In this document: piece by piece, positions 13,123 through 54,893 of the stretch
Layout: every line of letters starts with the position of its first letter
Position numbering within the stretch: the first letter of the stretch is position 1
NCBI GenBank assembly: GCA_000146045.2
Contig: BK006945.2
Location: 928,001 to 992,000 of the forward strand
DNA from: TPA_inf: Saccharomyces
Lineage: Eukaryota
Length of the DNA: 64,000 nt
Direction of reading: 5' to 3'
Position numbers and translations under genes: made by a program
Notes under the pieces: model-generated
Seen by the model: the letters and a program-made list of their open reading frames with translations, nothing else
Databases searched by the model: none
What the model was told of the DNA's origin: nothing

Positions 13123-13191
13123 TAGCGCCATAAGGATATGCGTCAGAGCACATTAATTAGTGACATATACCTATATAAAGAGCAACCTTCT

Positions 13192-13523
13192 TGTTGGAAT
13201 AAAAATCAACTATCATCTACTAACTAGTATTTACGTTACTAGTATATTATCATATACGGTGTTAGAAGATGACGCAAATGATGAGAAATAGTCATCTAAA
13301 TTAGTGGAAGCTGAAACGCAAGGATTGATAATGTAATAGGATCAATGAATATTAACATATAAAATGATGATAATAATATTTATAGAATTGTGTAGAATTG
13401 CAGATTCCCTTTTATGGATTCCTAAATCCTCGAGGAGAACTTCTAGTATATCTACATACCTAATATTATTGCCTTATTAAAAATGGAATCCCAACAATTA
13501 CATCAAAATCCACATTCTCTTCA
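13192..13523 (+). repeat. Ty2 5' LTR (delta), 332 bp
   Basis: TGTTGG...CA termini. It contains the TYA ATG (13483) and is identical to the 3' LTR. Confidence 0.9.
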
Positions 13524-14799
13524 TGGTAGCGCCTATGCTTCGGTTACTTCTAAGGAAGTCCCATCAAATCAAGATCCGTTAGCCGTTTCAGCTTCCAATT
13601 TACCGGAATTTGATAGAGATTCCACTAAGGTTAATTCTCAACAAGAGACAACACCTGGGACATCAGCTGTTCCAGAGAACCATCATCATGTCTCTCCTCA
13701 ACCTGCTTCAGTACCACCTCCACAGAATGGACAGTACCAACAGCACGGCATGATGACCCCAAACAAAGCTATGGCCTCTAACTGGGCACATTACCAACAA
13801 CCATCTATGATGACGTGTTCACATTATCAAACGTCACCTGCGTATTATCAACCGGACCCACACTATCCGTTGCCACAGTATATCCCACCACTGAGTACTT
13901 CCTCACCTGATCCAATCGATTTAAAAAATCAACACTCTGAAATACCTCAAGCTAAGACAAAGGTGGGAAATAACGTCTTACCACCACACACTTTAACATC
14001 AGAAGAAAACTTTTCTACATGGGTTAAATTTTACATCAGATTTTTGAAGAACTCTAATCTCGGTGACATCATTCCAAATGACCAGGGTGAAATCAAAAGA
14101 CAAATGACTTATGAAGAACATGCGTATATATACAATACCTTCCAAGCATTTGCCCCATTTCATTTATTGCCAACATGGGTAAAACAAATTTTAGAAATTA
14201 ATTATGCTGACATCCTTACAGTCCTTTGTAAAAGTGTGTCCAAAATGCAAACTAACAATCAAGAATTAAAGGATTGGATAGCTCTTGCCAACCTTGAGTA
14301 CGACGGAAGTACATCTGCTGATACATTTGAAATTACAGTCAGTACGATCATTCAGAGGCTAAAAGAAAACAATATCAATGTTAGCGACAGATTGGCCTGT
14401 CAACTAATACTTAAAGGTCTATCCGGTGACTTCAAATACCTACGTAATCAATATCGTACCAAAACGAACATGAAACTTTCCCAATTATTCGCTGAAATTC
14501 AATTAATATATGACGAAAATAAAATCATGAATCTAAATAAACCGTCCCAATACAAACAACACAGCGAATACAAAAATGTTTCTCGCACATCTCCAAACAC
14601 GACTAACACAAAGGTTACAACTCGTAATTATCATAGAACAAATAGTTCAAAACCAAGAGCAGCAAAAGCTCACAATATTGCTACATCTAGTAAATTCTCA
14701 AGGGTGAACAATGATCACATTAATGAATCAACCGTTTCATCACAATACTTAAGCGATGACAACGAACTTAGTCTTAGGCCAGCAACAGAAAGAATCTAA
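13483..14799 (+). CDS. Ty2 Gag (TYA), 438 aa
   Basis: ORF starting inside the 5' LTR, 438 aa, Ty2-type capsid protein. Confidence 0.9.
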
Positions 14800-17700
14800 G
14801 CCAACACACACAATAGACTCGAATGACGAACTACCTGATCACCTTCTTATTGATTCAGGAGCTTCGCAAACGCTTGTCAGATCAGCCCATTATTTACACC
14901 ATGCAACACCCAATTCTGAAATAAACATAGTCGATGCTCAAAAACAAGACATTCCTATAAATGCCATTGGTAATCTTCACTTCAACTTTCAGAACGGCAC
15001 CAAAACATCAATAAAAGCACTACACACACCAAACATAGCCTATGATCTATTAAGTTTGAGTGAGCTGGCTAACCAAAATATTACTGCCTGCTTTACCAGA
15101 AACACTTTAGAAAGATCGGATGGTACAGTACTAGCTCCCATAGTCAAACATGGAGACTTTTACTGGTTATCTAAAAAATACCTAATTCCTTCGCACATTT
15201 CAAAGCTAACAATAAACAACGTCAACAAAAGCAAAAGCGTAAATAAATATCCATATCCGTTAATACATCGAATGCTTGGACATGCTAACTTCCGAAGTAT
15301 TCAGAAGTCTCTTAAGAAGAATGCAGTTACATATTTGAAGGAATCGGATATTGAATGGTCTAACGCTAGCACATATCAATGTCCTGACTGTCTAATCGGC
15401 AAAAGCACGAAACATAGACATGTCAAAGGATCACGACTAAAGTACCAAGAATCATATGAGCCTTTTCAGTACTTGCATACCGATATATTTGGTCCTGTAC
15501 ATCACTTACCGAAAAGTGCACCTTCTTACTTTATATCGTTTACAGATGAGAAAACCAGATTCCAATGGGTGTACCCATTACACGACCGTCGTGAAGAATC
15601 TATCCTCAATGTTTTTACATCGATATTAGCATTTATTAAGAACCAATTCAATGCTCGCGTTCTAGTTATCCAGATGGATCGTGGCTCCGAGTACACTAAC
15701 AAAACTCTTCATAAGTTCTTTACGAACAGAGGTATTACTGCATGCTATACAACCACGGCAGATTCTAGAGCACACGGTGTCGCTGAACGATTAAATCGTA
15801 CTTTATTAAACGATTGTCGCACACTGCTTCATTGCAGTGGTCTACCAAATCATCTATGGTTCTCAGCAGTCGAATTTTCTACTATAATCAGAAATTCATT
15901 AGTCTCACCAAAAAACGATAAATCTGCAAGACAACATGCAGGTTTAGCTGGACTGGACATTACTACTATACTACCTTTCGGTCAACCGGTTATAGTTAAC
16001 AACCATAATCCCGACTCGAAAATACATCCTCGTGGCATTCCAGGTTACGCCTTACATCCGTCACGAAACTCTTATGGCTATATTATCTATCTTCCATCAT
16101 TAAAAAAGACAGTAGATACTACCAATTACGTTATATTACAAGACAACCAATCCAAATTGGACCAATTCAATTATGATACACTCACCTTTGATGATGATCT
16201 CAATCGTTTAACAGCCCATAACCAATCTTTTATTGAACAAAATGAAACAGAGCAGTCATATGATCAAAATACAGAATCTGATCATGACTATCAATCGGAG
16301 ATTGAAATAAACTCTGATCCTCTAGTGAACGACTTCTCGTCCCAATCAATGAACCCCTTACAATTAGACCACGAACCAGTCCAAAAAGTACGTGCACCAA
16401 AAGAAGTTGATGCCGACATATCTGAATACAATATTCTTCCATCTCCTGTACGATCTCGTACACCCCATATCATTAATAAAGAGAGTACCGAAATGGGTGG
16501 TACCATTGAATCAGATACTACTTCACCTAGACACTCGTCTACCTTCACTGCACGAAACCAAAAGCGACCTGGTAGTCCCAATGATATGATTGATTTGACC
16601 TCACAGGATAGAGTTAATTATGGACTTGAAAACATCAAAACTACACGTTTGGGTGGTACGGAGGAACCATATATTCAACGAAATAGTGATACAAATATCA
16701 AATACAGGACTACAAATAGTACGCCCTCAATAGATGACCGTTCGTCCAACAGTGAATCCACTACTCCCATCATCTCCATAGAAACAAAGGCTGTATGTGA
16801 TAATACACCCTCCATTGATACGGATCCGCCAGAATATCGATCTTCTGACCATGCGACTCCTAATATAATGCCTGACAAATCCTCAAAAAATGTTACGGCT
16901 GATTCTATTCTTGACGACCTCCCACTTCCTGACTTAACCCATAAATCTCCTACGGACACTTCTGATGTTTCAAAAGATATTCCACACATACACTCTCGTC
17001 AGACTAATTCCAGTTTGGGTGGTATGGATGATTCTAATGTTCTGACTACTACCAAAAGTAAGAAAAGATCATTAGAAGATAATGAAACTGAAATTGAGGT
17101 ATCCCGAGACACATGGAATAATAAGAATATGAGAAGTCTGGAACCACCAAGATCGAAGAAACGCATAAATTTAATTGCAGCAATAAAAGGAGTGAAATCG
17201 ATCAAACCAGTTCGAACGACCTTAAGATATGATGAAGCAATTACATATAATAAAGACAACAAAGAAAAAGACAGATATGTTGAAGCTTATCATAAAGAAA
17301 TTAGCCAACTATTGAAAATGAACACTTGGGATACAAACAAATATTATGATAGAAATGACATAGATCCTAAAAAAGTAATAAACTCAATGTTTATATTTAA
17401 CAAGAAACGTGATGGTACACACAAAGCTAGATTTGTTGCAAGAGGCGACATTCAACACCCCGATACATATGATTCTGATATGCAATCCAATACCGTACAT
17501 CACTATGCACTGATGACGTCACTGTCAATCGCATTAGACAACGACTATTATATCACACAGCTGGACATATCCTCTGCTTACTTATATGCTGATATCAAAG
17601 AAGAATTATACATAAGACCTCCACCACATTTAGGTTTGAATGATAAATTACTACGTTTGAGAAAATCACTCTATGGTTTGAAACAAAGTGGTGCAAACTG

Positions 17701-18796
17701 GTATGAAACCATTAAATCATATTTAATAAATTGTTGCGACATGCAAGAAGTTCGCGGATGGTCATGCGTATTTAAGAATAGTCAAGTAACAATTTGCTTA
17801 TTCGTTGATGATATGATATTATTCAGCAAAGACTTAAATGCAAATAAGAAAATCATAACAACACTCAAGAAACAATACGATACAAAGATAATAAATCTGG
17901 GTGAAAGAGATAACGAAATTCAGTACGACATACTTGGATTAGAGATCAAATATCAAAGAAGCAAGTACATGAAATTAGGTATGGAAAAATCCTTGACAGA
18001 AAAATTACCCAAACTAAACGTACCTTTGAACCCAAAAGGAAAGAAACTTAGAGCTCCAGGTCAACCAGGTCATTATATAGACCAGGATGAACTAGAAATA
18101 GATGAAGATGAATACAAAGAGAAGGTACATGAAATGCAAAAGTTGATTGGTCTAGCTTCATATGTTGGATATAAATTTAGATTTGACTTACTATACTACA
18201 TCAACACACTTGCTCAACATATACTATTCCCCTCTAGACAAGTTTTAGACATGACATATGAGTTAATACAATTCATGTGGGACACTAGAGATAAACAATT
18301 AATATGGCACAAAAACAAACCTACCAAGCCAGATAATAAACTAGTCGCAATAAGCGATGCTTCATATGGTAACCAACCATATTACAAGTCACAAATTGGT
18401 AACATTTTCCTACTCAACGGAAAAGTGATTGGAGGAAAGTCGACAAAGGCTTCGTTAACATGCACTTCAACTACAGAAGCAGAAATACACGCAGTCAGTG
18501 AAGCTATACCGCTATTGAATAACCTCAGTCACCTTGTGCAAGAACTTAACAAGAAACCAATTATTAAAGGCTTACTTACTGATAGTAGATCAACGATCAG
18601 TATAATTAAGTCTACAAATGAAGAGAAATTTAGAAACAGATTTTTTGGCACAAAGGCAATGAGACTTAGAGATGAAGTATCAGGTAATAATTTATACGTA
18701 TACTACATCGAGACCAAGAAGAACATTGCTGATGTGATGACAAAACCTCTTCCGATAAAAACATTTAAACTATTAACAAACAAATGGATTCATTAG
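14756..18796 (+). CDS. Ty2 Pol (TYB: protease, integrase, reverse transcriptase, RNase H), expressed as a Gag-Pol fusion via +1 frameshift at CTTAGGC (14773..14779)
   Basis: 1346-aa +1-frame ORF with integrase zinc motif ([11 protein letters not shown]...CPDCLIGK), DDE integrase core, RT motif (FVDDMILFS) and RNase H (AISDASYG...TEAEIHA). Confidence 0.9.
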
Positions 18797-18818
18797 ATCT
18801 ATTACATTATGGGTGGTA

Positions 18819-19150
18819 TGTTGGAATAAAAATCAACTATCATCTACTAACTAGTATTTACGTTACTAGTATATTATCATATACGGTGTTAGAAGATGAC
18901 GCAAATGATGAGAAATAGTCATCTAAATTAGTGGAAGCTGAAACGCAAGGATTGATAATGTAATAGGATCAATGAATATTAACATATAAAATGATGATAA
19001 TAATATTTATAGAATTGTGTAGAATTGCAGATTCCCTTTTATGGATTCCTAAATCCTCGAGGAGAACTTCTAGTATATCTACATACCTAATATTATTGCC
19101 TTATTAAAAATGGAATCCCAACAATTACATCAAAATCCACATTCTCTTCA
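18819..19150 (+). repeat. Ty2 3' LTR (delta), 332 bp
   Basis: Identical to 13192..13523 and preceded by the polypurine tract. Confidence 0.9.
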
Positions 19151-19252
19151 CTTCTCCGATAGACTTGTAATTTATCTTATTTCATTTCCTAACACTTTGA
19201 TCGAAGAAGAGGGATAACAACAGACGAAAACACATTTAAGGGCTATACAAAG

Positions 19253-19978
19253 ATGAATATGGGAGGCAGTAGCAGCACTGCTGCCAAAAAAGCGACTTGT
19301 AAAATATCGATGTTATGGAATTGGTATACCATTGACACCTGCTTCATTGCCAGATCTTGGAGAAATGACACCAAAGGAAAATTTGCTGGTTCTTGCATCG
19401 GCTGTTTTGCGCTTGTGGTGGTAGCTCAATGGCTTACTCGTTTTTCAAGGCAATTTGACGTAGAGCTATTAAAAAGACAGAAAATAAAGCATTTAGCTAG
19501 TTACTCGCCAGAGGAGTACGTTGTCAAATGTGGAGAAGAGGATGCTAAATCTGATATAGAAGAACTACAAGGCTTTTACAACGAACCAAGCTGGAAAACA
19601 ACTTTAATTTCCTTACAAAAAAGTTTCATTTATAGTTTTTACGTTTGGGGTCCAAGGAGATTGAACGAGCCAGAAGACGACCTGTTAAAGAAGGTCCTAT
19701 CATGCTGTACATTAATAACGCCAGTGGATTTGTACCCAACTTTTTTGGATCACATGATAAGAGTTACTATTTTCGTATTACAGTGGGGGTTATCTTATAT
19801 CATCATGCTGCTGTTCATGTACTATAACGGCTATATCATTATTAGTTGTTTAATAGGTGCTATCGTTGGTCGTTTCATATTTTGCTATGAACCTCTAGGC
19901 TCATTGGGTGCTAATGGATCAGCCCAGGGTACAGTGAGTTATGATAAAGAGAGTGATGATCGCAAATGCTGCTTGTAG
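19253..19978 (+). CDS. CTR3: High-affinity copper transporter Ctr3 (YLR411W), 241 aa
   Basis: 241-aa Cys-rich membrane protein with three TM segments and a GG4-like motif (CLIGAIVG). It lies immediately downstream of the Ty2, as in S288C. Confidence 0.85.
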   Translation: MNMGGSSSTAAKKATCKISMLWNWYTIDTCFIARSWRNDTKGKFAGSCIGCFALVVVAQWLTRFSRQFDVELLKRQKIKHLASYSPEEYVVKCGEEDAKSDIEELQGFYNEPSWKTTLISLQKSFIYSFYVWGPRRLNEPEDDLLKKVLSCCTLITPVDLYPTFLDHMIRVTIFVLQWGLSYIIMLLFMYYNGYIIISCLIGAIVGRFIFCYEPLGSLGANGSAQGTVSYDKESDDRKCCL

Positions 19979-34971: not shown

Positions 34972-35055
34972 TGAAGGATGCGAGGTTCGAACTCGCGCGG
35001 ACAACCGTCCAACAGATCTTAAGTCTGCCGCCTTAGACCACTCGGCCAACCCTCC
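34972..35055 (-). tRNA. tL(UAA): tRNA-Leu (anticodon UAA), intronless, 84 nt
   Basis: The reverse complement of 34972..35055 reads GGAGGGTTGGCCGAGTGGTCTAAGGCGGCAGACTTAAGATCTG...GAGTTCGAACCTCGCATCCTTCA. It has A/B boxes, a long variable arm, anticodon loop CTTAAGA, and a downstream oligo-T Pol III terminator (rc of 34961..34970). Confidence 0.85.
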
Positions 35056-35182: not shown

Positions 35183-35541
35183 TGTTGGTAAGCCTCTGAA
35201 AAATTTATCAAATACTAGTACAATTGTTTACCAACATCATTTTCGTTGCTAGAAAATTACTATACACCGTTAAGAAAAGACATAAATCATGAGACTAATA
35301 GAACAACACTAGGGATTAGCCAATTTAATGGGAGCTGAAATGCAGGGATTAATTATGCAATTACAAAATGAATGGTATCGTTTGAAATGAAAGAAGAAAC
35401 ACTAATATTATAACATAGAAATATCGATTTCTTCCTGCGAATTCCCATGTCCTCGTTGAGAACTTCTAATATGTTTTGTATGCCTAATATTATAGCTTTA
35501 CAAAAAAATAGAATCTCAACAATTATCCCACAATTCACTCA
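35183..35541 (+). repeat. Diverged solo delta (Ty1/Ty2 LTR) 127 bp upstream of tL(UAA)
   Basis: Starts TGTTGG and ends ...CACTCA. Internal blocks (GGAGCTGAAATGCAGGGATTAATTATG..., ...CCTCGTTGAGAACTTCTAATATG...) align with delta consensus with many substitutions. No intact TSD. Confidence 0.65.
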
Positions 35542-47982: not shown

Positions 47983-48056
47983 CGACCCCAGTGAGGGTTG
48001 AACTCACGATCTTGCGATTAACAGTCGCACGCCTTAACCAACTTGGCCATGGAGTC
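47983..48056 (-). tRNA. tN(GUU): tRNA-Asn (anticodon GUU), 74 nt
   Basis: The reverse complement reads GACTCCATGGCCAAGTTGGTTAAGGCGTGCGACTGTTAATCGCAAGATCGTGAGTTCAACCCTCACTGGGGTCG. It has a cloverleaf with anticodon loop CTGTTAA and an oligo-T terminator downstream (rc of 47971..47979). Confidence 0.9.
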
Positions 48057-48256
48057 TTTTATTTCCGATATCTGCTGAGTTAAAAATTATATAATATTAT
48101 TGATAGCTTCTATCATTGACCTTCAATTACTTATGTTGGAATATCAAAAATGTGAGATTTTTTTTTTCAAATAGTTTTGAAGAATCAGCGAATAATTTGA
48201 TACTTTTTGGGATTCTTGTTAGTAACGGCTATTGTTGGAGTTAAACTTCTTTAAAT

Positions 48257-48588
48257 TTGTAGAGTATGTGGATTTTGATGTAATTGTTGGGATTCCATTG
48301 TGATTAAGGCTATAATATTAGGTATGTAGATATACTAGAAGTTCTCCTCGAGGATTTAGGAATCCATAAAAGGGAATCTGCAATTCTACACAATTCTATA
48401 AATATTATTATCATCATTTTATATGTTAATATTCATTGATCCTATTACATTATCAATCCTTGCGTTTCAGCTTCCACTAATTTAGATGACTATTTCTCAT
48501 CATTTGCGTCATCTTCTAACACCGTATATGATAATATACTAGTAACGTAAATACTAGTTAGTAGATGATAGTTGATTTTTATTCCAAC
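48257..48588 (-). repeat. Ty2 copy 2 3' LTR (delta), 332 bp
   Basis: rc reads TGTTGGAATAAAAATC...CCACATACTCTACA. It differs from its partner LTR at 3 positions. Confidence 0.85.
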
Positions 48589-48611
48589 ATACCACCCATA
48601 ATGTAATAGAT

Positions 48612-51600
48612 CTAATGAATCCATTTGTTAGTTAATAGTTTAAATGTTTTTATCGGAAGAGGTTTTGTCATCACATCAGCAATGTTCTTCTTGGTCTCGA
48701 TGTAGTATACGTATAAATTATTACCTGATACTTCATCTCTAAGTCTCATTGCCTTTGTGCCAAAAAATCTGTTTCTAAATTTCTCTTCATTTATTTCTAG
48801 TTCATCCTGGTCTATATAATGACCTGGTTGACCTGGAGCTCTAAGTTTCTTTCCTTTTGGGTTCAAAGGTACGTTTAGTTTGGGTAATTTTTCTGTCAAG
48901 GATTTTTCCATACCTAATTTCATGTACTTGCTTCTTTGATATTTGATCTCTAATCCAAGTATGTCGTACTGAATTTCGTTATCACCTTCACCCAGATTTA
49001 TTATCTTTGTATCGTATTGTTTCTTGAGTGTTGTTATGATTTTCTTATTTGCATTTAAGTCTTTGCTGAATAATATCATATCATCAACGAATAAGCAAAT
49101 TGTTACTTGACTATTCTTAAATACGCATGACCATCCGCGAACTTCTTGCATGTCGCAACAATTTATTAAATATGATTTAATGGTTTCATACCAGTTTGCA
49201 CCACTTTGTTTCAAACCATAGAGTGATTTTCTCAAACGTAGTAACTTATCATTCAAACCTAAATGTGGTGGAGGTCTTATGTATAATTCTTCTTTGATAT
49301 CAGCATATAAGTAAGCAGAGGATATGTCCAGCTGTGTGATATAATAGTCATTGTCTAATGCGATTGACAATGACGTCATCAGTGCATAGTGATGTACGGT
49401 ATTGGATTGCATATCAGAATCATATGTATCGGGGTGTTGAATGTCGCTTCTTGCAACAAATCTAGCTTTGTGTGTACCATCACGTTTCTTGTTAAATATA
49501 AACATTGAGTTTATTACTTTTTTAGGATCTATGTCATTTCTATCATAATATTTGTTTGTATCCCAAGTGTTCATTTTCAATAGTTGGCTAATTTCTTTAT
49601 GATAAGCTTCAACATATCTGTCTTTTTCTTTGTTGTCTTTATTATATGTAATTGCTTCATCATATCTTAAGGTCGTTCGAACTGGTTTGATCGATTTCAC
49701 TCCTTTTATTGCTGCAATTAAATTTATGCGTTTCTTCGATCTTGGTGGTTCCAGACTTCTCATATTCTTATTATTCCATGTGTCTCGGGATACCTCAATT
49801 TCAGTTTCATTATCTTCTAATGATCTTTTCTTACTTTTGGTAGTAGTCAGAACATTAGAATCATCCATACCACCCAAACTGGAATTAGTCTGACGAGAGT
49901 GTATGTGTGGAATATCTTTTGAAACATCAGAAGTGTCCGTAGGAGATTTATGGGTTAAGTCAGGAAGTGGGAGGTCGTCAAGAATAGAATCAGCCGTAAC
50001 ATTTTTTGAGGATTTGTCAGGCATTATATTAGGAGTCGCATGGTCAGAAGATCGATATTCTGGCGGATCCGTATCAATGGAGGGTGTATTATCACATACA
50101 GCCTTTGTTTCTATGGAGATGATGGGAGTAGTGGATTCACTGTTGGACGAACGGTCATCTATTGAGGGCGTACTATTTGTAGTCCTGTATTTGATATTTG
50201 TATCACTATTTCGTTGAATATATGGTTCCTCCGTACCACCCAAACGTGTAGTTTTGATGTTTTCAAGTCCATAATTAACTCTATCCTGTGAGGTCAAATC
50301 AATCATCTCATTGGTACTACCAGGTCGGTTTTGGTTTCGTGCAGTGAAGGTAGACGAGTGTCTAGGTGAAGTAGTATCTGATTCAACGGTACCACCCATT
50401 TCGGTACTCTCTTTATTAATGATATGGGGTGTACGAGATCGTATAGTAGATGGAAGAATATTGTATTCAGATATGTCGGCATCAACTTCTTTTGGTGCAC
50501 GTACTTTTTGGACTGGTTCCTTGTCTAATTGTAAAGGGTTTATTGATTGGGACGAGAAGTCGTTCACTAGAGGATCAGAGTTTATTTCAATCTCCGATTG
50601 ATAGTCATGATCAGATTCTTTATTTTGATCATATGACTGCTCTGTTTCATTTTGTTCAATAAAAGATTGGTTATGGGCTGTTAAACGATTGAGATCATCA
50701 TCAAAAGTGAGTGTATCGTAGTCGAACTGGTCCAATTTCGTTTGCTTGTTTTGTAATATAACGTAATTGGTAGTATCTACTGTCTTTTTTAAGGATGGAA
50801 GATAGATAATATAGCCATAAGAGTTTCGTGATGGATGTAAGGCGTAACCTGGAATGCCACGAGGATGTATTTTCGAGTCGGGATTATGGTTGTTAACTAT
50901 AACCGGTTGACCGAAAGGTAGTATAGTAGTAATGTCCAGTCCAGCTAAACCTGCATGTTGTCTTGCAGATTTATCGTTTTTTGGTGAGACTAATGAATTT
51001 CTGATTATAGTAGAAAATTCGACTGCTGAGAACCATAGATGATTTGGTAGACCACTGCAATGAAGCAGTGTGCGACAATCGTTTAATAAAGTACGATTTA
51101 ATCGTTCAGCGACACCGTGTGCTCTAGAATCTGCCGTGGTTGTATAGCATGCAGTAATACCTCTGTTCGTAAAGAACTTATGAAGAGTTTTGTTAGTGTA
51201 CTCGGAGCCACGATCCATCTGGATAACTAGAACGCGAGCATTGAATTGGTTCTTAATAAATGCTAATATCGATGTAAAAACATTGAGGATAGATTCTTCA
51301 CGACGGTCGTGTAATGGGTACACCCATTGGAATCTGGTTTTCTCATCTGTAAACGATATAAAGTAAGAAGGTGCACTTTTCGGTAAGTGATGTACAGGAC
51401 CAAATATATCGGTATGCAAGTACTGAAAAGGCTCATATGATTCTTGGTACTTTAGTCGTGATCCTTTGACATGCCTATGTTTCGTGCTTTTGCCGATTAG
51501 ACAGTCAGGACATTGATATGTGCTAGCGTTAGACCATTCAATATCCGATTCTTTCAAATATGTAACTGCATTCTTCTTAAGAGACTTCTGAATACTTCGG

Positions 51601-52136
51601 AAGTTAGCATGTCCAAGCATTCGATGTATTAACGGATATGGATATTTATTTACGCTTTTGCTTTTGTTGACGTTGTTTATTGTTAGCTTTGAAATGTGCG
51701 AAGGAATTAGGTATTTTTTAGATAACCAGTAAAAGTCTCCATGTTTGACTATGGGAGCTAGTACTGTACCATCCGATCTTTCTAAAGTGTTTCTGGTAAA
51801 GCAGGCAGTAATATTTTGGTTAGCCAGCTCACTCAAACTTAATAGATCATAGGCTATGTTTGGTGTGTGTAGTGCTTTTATTGATGTTTTGGTGCCGTTC
51901 TGAAAGTTGAAGTGAAGATTACCAATGGCATTTATAGGAATGTCTTGTTTTTGAGCATCGACTATGTTTATTTCAGAATTGGGTGTTGCATGGTGTAAAT
52001 AATGGGCTGATCTGACAAGCGTTTGCGAAGCTCCTGAATCAATAAGAAGGTGATCAGGTAGTTCGTCATTCGAGTCTATTGTGCGTGTTGGCTTAGATTC
52101 TTTCTGTTGCTGGCCTAAGACTAAGTTCGTTGTCAT
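48612..52136 (-). CDS. Ty2 Pol (TYB) of copy 2, 1174 aa. In-frame deletion of 172 codons removes the RNase H catalytic core.
   Basis: Collinear with copy 1 TYB except ...DQDELEI[172 aa missing]NEEKFRN.... The protease, integrase and RT regions are intact. Confidence 0.85.
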
Positions 52137-53409
52137 CGCTTAAGTATTGTGATGAAACGGTTGATTCATTAATGTGATCATTGTTCACCCTTGAGAATTT
52201 ACTGGATGTAGCAATATTGTGAGCTTTTGCTGCTCTTGGTTTTGAACTATTTGTTCTATGATAATTACGAGTTGTAACCTTCGTGTTAGTCGTGTTTGGA
52301 GATGTGCGAGAAACATTTTTGTATTCGCTGTGTTGTTTGTATTGGGACGGTTTATTTAGATTCATGATTTTATTTTCGTCATATATTAATTGAATTTCAG
52401 CGAATAATTGGGAAAGTTTCATGTTCGTTTTGGTACGATATTGATTACGTAGGTATTTGAAATCACCGGATAGACCTTTAAGTATTAGTTGACAGGCCAA
52501 TCTGTCGCTAACATTGATATTGTTTTCTTTTAGCCTTTGAATGATCGTGCTGACTGTAATTTCAAATGTATCAGCAGATGTACTTCCGTTGTACTCAAGG
52601 TTGGCAAGAGCTATCCAATCTTTTAATTCTTGATTGTTAGTTTGCATTTTGGACACACTTTTACAAAGGACAGTAAGGATGTCAGAATAATTAATTTCTA
52701 AAATTTGTTTTACCCATGTTGGCAATAAATGAAATGGGGCAAATGCTTGGAAGGTATTGTATATATACGCATGTTCTTCATAAGTCATTTGTCTTTTGAT
52801 TTCACCCTGGTCATTTGGAATAATGTCACCGAGATTAGAGTTCTTCAAAAATCTGATGTAAAATTTAACCCATGTAGAAAAGTTTTCTTCTGATGTTAAA
52901 GTGTGTGGTGGTAAGACATTATTTCTCACCTTTGTCTTAGCTTGAGGTACTTCAGAGTGTTGATCCTGTGAATCGATTGGATCAGGTGAGGAAGTACTCA
53001 GCGGTGGGATATACTGTGGCAGCGGATAGTGTGGGTCCGGTTGATAATACGCAGGTGACGTTTGATAATGTGAACACGTCATCATAGATGGTTGTTGGTA
53101 ATGTGCCCAGTTAGAAGCCATAGCTTTGTTTGGGGTCATCATGCCGTGCTGTTGGTACTGTCCATTCTGTGGAGGTGGTACTGAAGCAGGTTGAGGAGAG
53201 ACATGATGATGGTTCTCTGGAACAGCTGATGTCCCAGGTGTTGTCTCTTCTTGAGAATTAACCTTAGTGGAATCTCTATCAAATTCCGGTAAATTGGAAG
53301 CTGAAACGGCTAACGGATCTTGATTTGATGGGACTTCCTTAGAAGTAACCGAAGCATAGGCGCTACCATGTAGAGAATGTGGATTTTGATGTAATTGTTG
53401 GGATTCCAT
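52093..53409 (-). CDS. Ty2 Gag (TYA) of copy 2, 438 aa
   Basis: About 98 percent identical to copy 1 TYA. Confidence 0.9.
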
Positions 53410-53700
53410 TGTGATTAAGGCTATAATATTAGGTATGTAGATATACTAGAAGTTCTCCTCAAGGATTTAGGAATCCATAAAAGGGAATCTGCAATTCTAC
53501 ACAATTCTATAAATATTATTATCATCGTTTTATATGTTAATATTCATTGATCCTATTACATTATCAATCCTTGCGTTTCAGCTTCCACTAATTTAGATGA
53601 CTATTTCTCATCATTTGCGTCATCTTCTAACACCGTATATGATAATATACTAGTAACGTAAATACTAGTTAGTAGATGATAGTTGATTTTTATTCCAACA
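53369..53700 (-). repeat. Ty2 copy 2 5' LTR (delta), 332 bp
   Basis: rc reads TGTTGGAATAAAAATC...CCACATTCTCTACA, followed by the PBS. It contains the TYA ATG. Confidence 0.85.
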
Positions 53701-54893
53701 GGTTCACACGAAGATTGAAAGTGTGGCCACGCTAATTTAGTTTATTAGGGAAATGCTCCTGGTCAGTTCTAATTCACCCAACGTAGCGCGGAATATTTTA
53801 AAGTTAATATAGTATTTCGATATGACAAGCACCTCTAAACAAAAGGTTATTTTCGCTTTTGTTCATTGAGCGTGTACTTCAAGCCTGATCCTGCTTTTTC
53901 TTCTGATTTGATCTGATTCGATTAAGCAAGCGGTACTACCCTAAAACCGCCATCTGTTGTAATATAGTAACGTCGCAATAAACCTGTCATATAATTAGCA
54001 GCTAATCCTTATATTCCATCTCCTCAATTTGTGATATTTATCGTATATAATTCCCATTTCAGACCGTCATTTAGTAGTAGGCATCTAACTATGGAACGGC
54101 TTTACCCGATCTTGGTATGTATGCCATAATGTACTACCGCTATCGATTTACCTTAACCCTAACGAGTGTCTCTAGCCAGTATTTTAAACTTCCATATCAC
54201 AACTAATGTTGAAGATTGTATAATAAAAACATCAAGCTATTTAATAGATGCGATTAATCTCCTAATCGAAAACAGTTTGTTCGGTGTCCAAATACTGTTT
54301 TAGTGGACTATGATAAACGTTATAACAGCTATTTTGACTAAAACAACCGTAAATTTACACAGATAGGTGTTCACAGTAATTTTTTGGGGAGTTAGGTCGA
54401 AATCTTTTCCAAAACCAGTCATGCAAAGGAAATGCGTCAACTTTTGGGGACTTTTCCCCTACTCAAACACAGTTAGTCAACATTTAAAGGTTGTGTCTTT
54501 ACTTAAGAGAAAATTAACTGAGCTTCGGTCATACATACGTAATTTCGCTGCTTCCAGTCGAGCAGTTGGTGCGCTATAATCATTTGATGTTTTTAGCTTA
54601 CGGCTTCTTAAGATTTTCTATTGTTCATACTGACTCGTCGCATAGGCCGCAATATAAATCATTTAGAGAAAACGTTAACACATCGTTTAGGTAAACAACC
54701 CCTAGAGAGGATGATCAGTACGCAATATAACTGTTCAAAATCCATTTCTTGCATCAATATTTTATTCAACTATTATTTCTGGAGGTTTTAGTGGTTCTGT
54801 ATACCCCCTCCAGCCACTGTTATGAACAATTAATTGATACTACTTCGAATATAAACATTAAAACAAAAAACTTATTGAGTGCAGCAAGTTAAC

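Follow-up and report, generated by a model that had tools for sequence, protein, structure and literature searches.

We analyzed a window of 64,000 nucleotides (nt) from Saccharomyces (GenBank assembly GCA_000146045.2, contig BK006945.2, positions 928,001 to 992,000 of the forward strand), a stretch of chromosome XII that carries two Ty2 retrotransposons, copy 1 on the + strand and copy 2 on the - strand; positions given below are those of the window unless another sequence is named. Copy 1 is flanked by a PPIP5K/His_Phos_2 gene and a Ctr copper transporter gene, and copy 2 by a G-patch gene (SPP382-like) and a RhoGEF/CNH-domain gene (TUS1-like). These neighbour-gene domains fit the chromosome XII placement of both elements. 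Copy 2 is the catalogued S. cerevisiae chromosome XII element Ty2-LR2, presumably the one named YLRCTy2-2 in SGD. Its frameshifted Gag-Pol of 1598 amino acids (aa) matched UniProt P0C2J5 (S. cerevisiae S288C) residue for residue, and so did its 438-aa Gag with P0C2J6 (Ty2-LR2 Gag), no difference being found in either. P0C2J5 is entitled "PUTATIVE PSEUDOGENE: Transposon Ty2-LR2 Gag-Pol polyprotein" and P0C2J6 is likewise labelled a putative pseudogene. Taken as a whole, copy 2 is most probably a non-autonomous, decaying Ty2 that carries one in-frame deletion of 516 base pairs (bp) between imperfect repeats. The parts of the two elements are located as follows.

13192..19150, + strand: copy 1, intact reference Ty2, 5959 bp
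13483..14799, + strand: copy 1 TYA
14756..18796, + strand: copy 1 TYB, 1346 aa
18100..18108, + strand: left repeat copy AGATGAAGA, the same in 5/5 full-length Ty2 copies
18101..18616, + strand: the 516 bp present in copy 1 and absent from copy 2, encoding TYB 1116-1287
18616..18624, + strand: right repeat copy AAATGAAGA, the one that copy 2 keeps
48258..53700, - strand: copy 2, complete deleted Ty2, 5443 bp, delimited by alignment to copy 1, matches of the long terminal repeats (LTRs) and the match to P0C2J5
53369..53700, - strand: copy 2 5' LTR, 332 bp, TGTTGG...ACA
53359..53368, - strand: copy 2 primer-binding site (PBS) TGGTAGCGCC, intact, directly after the 5' LTR and equal to that of copy 1
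52093..53409, - strand: copy 2 TYA (Gag) open reading frame (ORF), 438 aa, open
52113..52119, - strand: +1 frameshift heptamer CTTAGGC in the TYA frame, within the TYA/TYB overlap, intact in copy 2
48612..52136, - strand: copy 2 TYB (Pol) ORF, 1174 aa, open, with the internal deletion
49446..49448, - strand: copy 2 codon of the Gly to Ser change at TYB residue 897 (G897S), in the KARxVAxG motif of the reverse transcriptase (RT); G to A relative to copy 1 position 17444
48784..48792, - strand: deletion junction, between 48792 and 48791, with the single kept repeat AAATGAAGA
48615..48791, - strand: ribonuclease H (RNase H) remnant, the C-terminal 59 aa (last helices, strand 5 and fourth Asp)
48590..48597, - strand: copy 2 3' polypurine tract (PPT) GGGTGGTA, abutting the 3' LTR, intact and equal to that of copy 1
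48258..48589, - strand: copy 2 3' LTR, 332 bp

Copy 2 has the features by which a Ty2, a Ty1/copia-type LTR retrotransposon of the Pseudoviridae, is recognized, namely paired LTRs of about 332 bp, a PBS, a PPT, and TYA and TYB ORFs joined by the CTTAGGC heptamer. Its two LTRs show TG...CA ends and differ at 3 of 332 positions (329/332 identical, 99.1%). The PBS of Ty1 and Ty2 elements is complementary to initiator tRNA-Met. Frameshifting at CTTAGGC yields a Gag-Pol of 1598 aa in copy 2 and of 1770 aa in copy 1. Based on Pfam matches, TYB of copy 2 comprises Pol_BBD (31-108), gag_pre-integrs (159-217), rve (235-335), SH3_retrovirus (402-465) and RVT_2 (872-1046), and the copia-type order of protease (PR), integrase (IN), RT and RNase H is recognizable, the last domain being present as the 59-aa remnant only. 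Intact Ty2 elements (copy 1; Ty2-C, P25384) resemble copy 2 in nucleotide sequence (98.8% identity), LTRs, PBS, frameshift site, PPT and Pol order, whereas they encode the 1770-aa Gag-Pol with a complete RT-RNase H.

A BLASTN comparison resolved the two elements into two collinear blocks, copy 1 13192..18112 against copy 2 53700..48781 and copy 1 18616..19147 against copy 2 48792..48261; the element ends listed above include the last three LTR bases, which BLAST trimmed. The full lengths (5959 vs 5443 bp) differ by exactly 516 bp. When positions 18101..18616 were removed from copy 1, the remainder aligned to copy 2 gap-free and with 66 mismatches, an identity of 98.79%, so the length difference is one block and not the sum of scattered indels. 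The original prediction, made from the letters of this DNA, had proposed a single in-frame 516-bp deletion from TYB lengths of 1174 aa in copy 2 and 1346 aa in copy 1; the ORF lengths bore this out and the pairwise alignment that it called for excluded the scattered-indel alternative. The block comprises 172 codons in frame and encodes the peptide DEDEYKEK...ISIIKST (TYB 1116-1287, 172 aa), which includes TDSRST. Neither the 516-bp segment nor its peptide occurs elsewhere within the window, and a relocation of the RNase H motifs to another part of the ORF was rejected on this ground. Two clusters of differences stood out between the copies, one of 4 in 6 bp in TYA (copy 1 13922..13927) and another of 9 in 45 bp in the integrase C-terminal region (copy 1 16142..16186); they resemble a variable patch or a tract of gene conversion more than an even scatter of point mutations.

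The breakpoints could be placed to the nucleotide. Copy 1 reads GAAAT-AGATGAAGA-TGAA at the left site and TCTAC-AAATGAAGA-GAAA at the right site, and the junction of copy 2 reads GAAAT-AAATGAAGA-GAAATTT. The flanking homology is an imperfect 9-nt direct repeat, A[G/A]ATGAAGA, with 8/9 positions matching and a perfect 7-nt core, ATGAAGA, at copy 1 18102..18108 and 18618..18624. The right breakpoint is 18616/18617 and the repeat spacing equals the size of the deletion (516). Microhomology at both breakpoints had been recognized from the start and the right ATGAAGA correctly placed at 18618..18624, but the left one had been set 1 nt off, at 18101..18107, and the right breakpoint at about 18613. 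Such homology is unlikely by chance: among random pairs of copy 1 breakpoints, a repeat of at least 7 nt touched the junction in 0.10%, and an identity of at least 8/9 in register was found in 0.024%. The mismatched position of the left repeat is G in 5/5 full-length Ty2 elements (copy 1 of the window, two in metagenome scaffold L002, and those of scaffolds L003 and L004). Since copy 2 carries the A of the right repeat and the left repeats all have G, copy 2 kept the whole right repeat. The 44-nt junction sequence GACCAGGATGAACTAGAAATAAATGAAGAGAAATTTAGAAACAG is a handy marker for this allele, or for trans-mobilised descendants of it, in yeast population genomes.

Concerning the insertion history, the two copies differ. 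The LTRs of copy 1 are identical and the element is bounded on both sides by the target-site duplication CTTCT (13187..19155), and for these reasons it looks like a young insertion. Copy 2, in contrast, is without a 5-bp target-site duplication, its + strand flanks being AAATT (48253..48257) and GGTTC (53701..53705). This absence signals later Ty-Ty recombination and not that the element falls outside Ty2, and it suggests that copy 2 came about by recombination of two Ty2 insertions in a tRNA-proximal hotspot rather than by a simple insertion. A tRNA-Asn(GTT) gene lies at 47983..48056 (- strand), with its 5' end about 200 bp from the 3' LTR of copy 2; the region upstream of a gene transcribed by RNA polymerase III is the usual insertion position of Ty1 and Ty2. 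Recombination between Ty2 elements, as supposed for copy 2, is reported to be frequent (PMC3511429).

The original prediction left the origin of the deletion between a microhomology-mediated deletion and template switching by RT; the junction is consistent with these proposals without proving either. We lean, by a modest degree, toward a template switch during minus-strand complementary DNA (cDNA) synthesis over an event in the host chromosome. The nascent minus-strand cDNA would have copied the right (3') repeat through 18616 and then re-paired with the left (5') repeat, on the same or a co-packaged RNA, by 8 Watson-Crick pairs plus one G.T and with a matched 3' terminus, synthesis resuming from 18099. 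Copy 2 would then have been born defective in the particle of a functional parent, its own insertion needing no help in trans. A jump in the antisense direction fits because the junction holds the mismatched base A of the 3' repeat; a jump in the sense direction, by plus-strand synthesis or slippage of that polarity, is disfavoured because it would leave the G of the left repeat. Guidance of the jump by RNA structure found no support, as the RNA fold of 18071..18654 showed no helix joining both breakpoints and an unremarkable stability (z = -1.66).

Template-switch deletion mutants of retroviruses and Ty1 offer a parallel, since they share with copy 2 the single kept repeat, a deleted length equal to the repeat spacing (here 516) and a polarity that fits a minus-strand jump. 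Template-switch deletion between short direct repeats has been shown experimentally for marked elements, whereas for copy 2 we can only infer it. Copy 2 nevertheless offers a clean natural case of a deletion between 9-nt imperfect repeats whose polarity fits a minus-strand template switch.

The strongest alternative is a chromosomal deletion after the integration of a full-length element, by replication slippage or by microhomology-mediated end joining (MMEJ) or single-strand annealing between the 9-nt repeats. We regard it as possible, though on balance doubtful. Slippage and MMEJ use this same microhomology, Ty2-Ty2 recombination is documented (PMC3511429), and copy 2 shows signs of a chromosomal history in its missing target-site duplication and 3 LTR differences. 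Moreover, 14 substitutions of copy 2 were absent from the few other Ty2 elements available, in a MAFFT alignment with only 3-5 comparison copies. Against a chromosomal origin, sense-direction slippage would leave the left-repeat G, which is not seen, and MMEJ would be expected to leave the A in just one half of cases. A round of reverse transcription also produces deletions between short repeats far more often than a round of chromosomal replication does, and it is only this frequency argument that favours the RT jump over a host event.

What the deletion removed was assessed in an alignment (A1) of the RT-RNase H region of copy 1 (TYB 841-1346) with 44 copia-type homologues, in which the deletion corresponds to query positions 276-447. 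The deletion takes in the nearly invariant G292, R302, D304, P319, D361, S372, G375, S398, E401, E403 and D436 and leaves out D486, T489 and K490, which are nearly invariant too. Three of the four conserved RNase H carboxylates were deleted, D1201 (in AISDASYG), E1243 (of the pair E1241/E1243, in TEAEIHA) and D1276 (in TDSRST), and copy 2 retains the fourth only, the equivalent of D1326. A second alignment, of the RNase H domain (A2), gave D30, E70/E72, D105 and D155 as conserved, of which D155, together with T158 and K159, is kept in copy 2. When the RT-RNase H region was searched by sequence against PDB chains, only a chance match came up (E = 0.5), and structure prediction and Foldseek were used for that reason. 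The model of the last 175 residues of copy 1 (predicted local distance difference test, pLDDT, 89.8) matched solved RNase H structures with a Foldseek probability of 1.00, among them Sulfolobus, Escherichia coli and human RNase HI and the RNase H domains of foamy virus, a gammaretrovirus and human immunodeficiency virus (HIV). On this model, copy 2 has lost strands 1-4 and helices A and B, with 59 residues left. Copy 1 thus has what is expected of a type 1 RNase H (DEDD), and copy 2, with strands 1-4 and three carboxylates gone, does not. The RNase H fold of the C-terminal domain and the loss of three of its four acidic residues uphold the earlier claim that the catalytic core had been removed.

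At first reading the RT itself appears intact, since Pfam still gives RVT_2 at 872-1046 as before, and the original prediction had listed it as such, together with Gag, protease and integrase. Gag, the PR-like barrel and the integrase core are indeed kept, as are the SH3-like domain and the RVT_2 region (fingers and palm); the assignment did not hold for RT. An AlphaFold model of the RT-RNase H of copy 1, built from A1, reached a pLDDT of 91.8 and a predicted template modelling score (pTM) of 0.91 and matched the RTs of Moloney murine leukaemia virus, xenotropic murine leukaemia virus-related virus and HIV. It showed, in order, the palm, a loop of about 30 residues, three helices (277-300, 303-313 and 321-336, equal to TYB 1117-1176) and then the strands of the last domain. 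The deletion begins one residue before this three-helix subdomain between palm and RNase H, and G292, R302, D304 and P319, the nearly invariant residues of the three helices, are all deleted. The G..L.YL...TRPDI stretch of the subdomain is the most conserved outside the active sites in A1. Judging from RT architecture, the deleted subdomain would be the RT thumb.

A second lesion of copy 2 lies in the kept part of RT. Position 897 is Gly in 41/41 aligned copia-type RTs and in every other Ty2 examined, the Ser being found elsewhere only in the same allele of a second assembly (locus L001, described below), so that G897S is probably a second inactivating change. With the loss of the three helices and G897S, the RT is not intact, and very probably the polymerase of copy 2 is dead besides its RNase H. 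If a complete RT (fingers, palm and thumb) plus RNase H is taken as the requirement for autonomy, copy 2 falls short, as the putative thumb and most of the RNase H are deleted.

That only RNase H was knocked out, with a functional polymerase that RNase H alone in trans would rescue, we consider very improbable. The unchanged RVT_2 match and the retention of the YXDD-type motif FVDD at 1016 speak for this simpler loss, but the deletion of the three palm-RNase H helices with their four nearly invariant residues and the substitution of an invariant Gly speak against it. RT and RNase H of Ty1 and Ty2 form one polypeptide, which leaves no separate supply of RNase H, and the whole RT-RNase H would therefore be needed in trans. 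Rescue by RNase H alone, as initially proposed, was accordingly set aside in favour of a requirement for complete RT-RNase H, the polymerase being very probably dead.

The cis signals of copy 2, namely its LTR ends, PBS, frameshift site and PPT, are intact. A mini-Ty1 with no more than the 5'-terminal 380-575 nt and the last 357 nt transposes when helper proteins are given (PMC5454406), and the deletion ends 534 nt before the end of the element (copy 1 coordinates). By analogy, copy 2 would keep everything needed in cis and could at most be copied by the proteins of other Ty2 elements. The resemblance to mini-Ty1 lies in the internal deletion with retention of the 5' and 3' cis regions, the mini-Ty1 RNA being reverse transcribed and integrated with helper Gag and Pol (PMC5454406). 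However, mini-Ty1 was engineered and nearly all of its GAG and POL is gone, whereas copy 2 arose in nature, still encodes Gag, PR and IN, and is not known to have moved. We give very little credence to the further ideas that Ty2-LR2 might be a natural non-autonomous parasite co-packaged with other Ty2 elements, that its truncated Pol or its Gag might interfere with Ty2 replication as an analogue of copy-number control, or that the pair AGATGAAGA/AAATGAAGA might be a recurrent RT jump hotspot in other strains.

Several points weigh against our account of a non-autonomous element deleted by a template switch. Antisense replication slippage, or MMEJ followed by mismatch resolution, yields an identical junction. 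The missing target-site duplication and the 3 LTR differences indicate recombination after integration, when the deletion could also have arisen. The thumb call derives from the AlphaFold model and general RT architecture, and the loss of the copy 2 polymerase is likewise deduced. Finally, the deletion junction was seen at this locus only, in the window and in L001; no copy of it was found at a second locus and hence no sign of mobilisation in trans. Metagenome contigs of the Joint Genome Institute gave 0 matches to the exact junction; the negative is a weak one, as the undeleted site itself was present in just 2 contigs.

The deleted allele is common to at least two strains. Locus L001 (CP046092.1 of assembly GCA_002571405.2), from a strain that we take to be CEN.PK113-7D by its SCEN_ locus tags, agrees with the window in element, junction and flanks over 12.6 kb, except for 1 mismatch and 5 homopolymer indels of one base each. 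The comparison with the S288C reference that the original prediction had proposed thus found the same deletion in P0C2J5 and the same junction in a second assembly. An artefact of assembly or sequencing, such as a collapse between short repeats, has practically no probability and was rejected. In its favour is no more than that repeated Ty elements are generally hard to assemble, while an independent assembly agrees in junction, flanks and element, the 1598-aa product is also that of the curated UniProt entry, and assemblies do not collapse at repeats as short as 9 nt. Within the element of L001 (6710..12149 of that locus) the five single-base indels are the only differences; they fall in A or G runs, fragment the annotated Pol ORF and are probably homopolymer errors of long reads.

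The metagenome scaffolds L002 (743..12326), L003 and L004 showed Ty2-LTR-Ty2 arrangements, head to tail with one LTR shared. Their Gag is identical to that of copy 2 and their TYB is full length (1346 aa). Such arrangements could be genuine tandem arrays of Ty2, or else the assembler may have wrapped around a repeated element. Fragments of Ty2 Gag and RT have also been deposited as 'hypothetical protein [Streptococcus uberis]' (GAA5351190.1, and GAA5349144.1 / WP_461254127.1), most likely through contamination of bacterial assemblies with yeast DNA.

The deleted Ty2-LR2 is an already known feature of the reference genome, re-described here, and an ordinary one. Added to the catalogue are the exact breakpoints, the imperfect 9-nt repeat, the probable thumb loss, G897S and the missing target-site duplication. 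In the open-access literature searched for YLRCTy2-2 or Ty2-LR2 there was no text describing the deletion, and one paper mentioned the element merely as the border of a rearrangement. Population surveys count Ty2-LR2 among 13 'full-length' Ty2 elements, by the criterion that both LTRs are present (PMC3511429). Counts of 'full-length' Ty elements made in this way take in one copy that is unable to make RT/RNase H. The Ty5 of S288C is a similar case, LTR-flanked, 'full-length' by the two-LTR criterion, internally deleted and inactive, but it belongs to another family and its LTRs are 91% identical (PMC3511429), whereas copy 2 has open ORFs and LTRs with 99.1% identity. Beyond annotation hygiene the importance of the finding is small, this being the most-studied eukaryotic reference genome and the pseudogene label being already there.

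Two observations concern other Ty2 sequences of the window. The 3' LTR of copy 1 ends 102 bp upstream of the ORF of the Ctr-family copper transporter (19253..19978), and there is no tRNA gene within 15 kb of this copy. It is the Ty2 known to sit in the CTR3 promoter and to silence CTR3 in S288C-derived strains (PMC7956333). In addition, a degenerate LTR fragment of about 85 bp, with 78% identity to the Ty2 LTR, was located about 400 bp from a tRNA-Leu(TAA) gene, the pair lying at 34972..35055 and 35441..35525; the fragment is probably the remnant of an old solo LTR.

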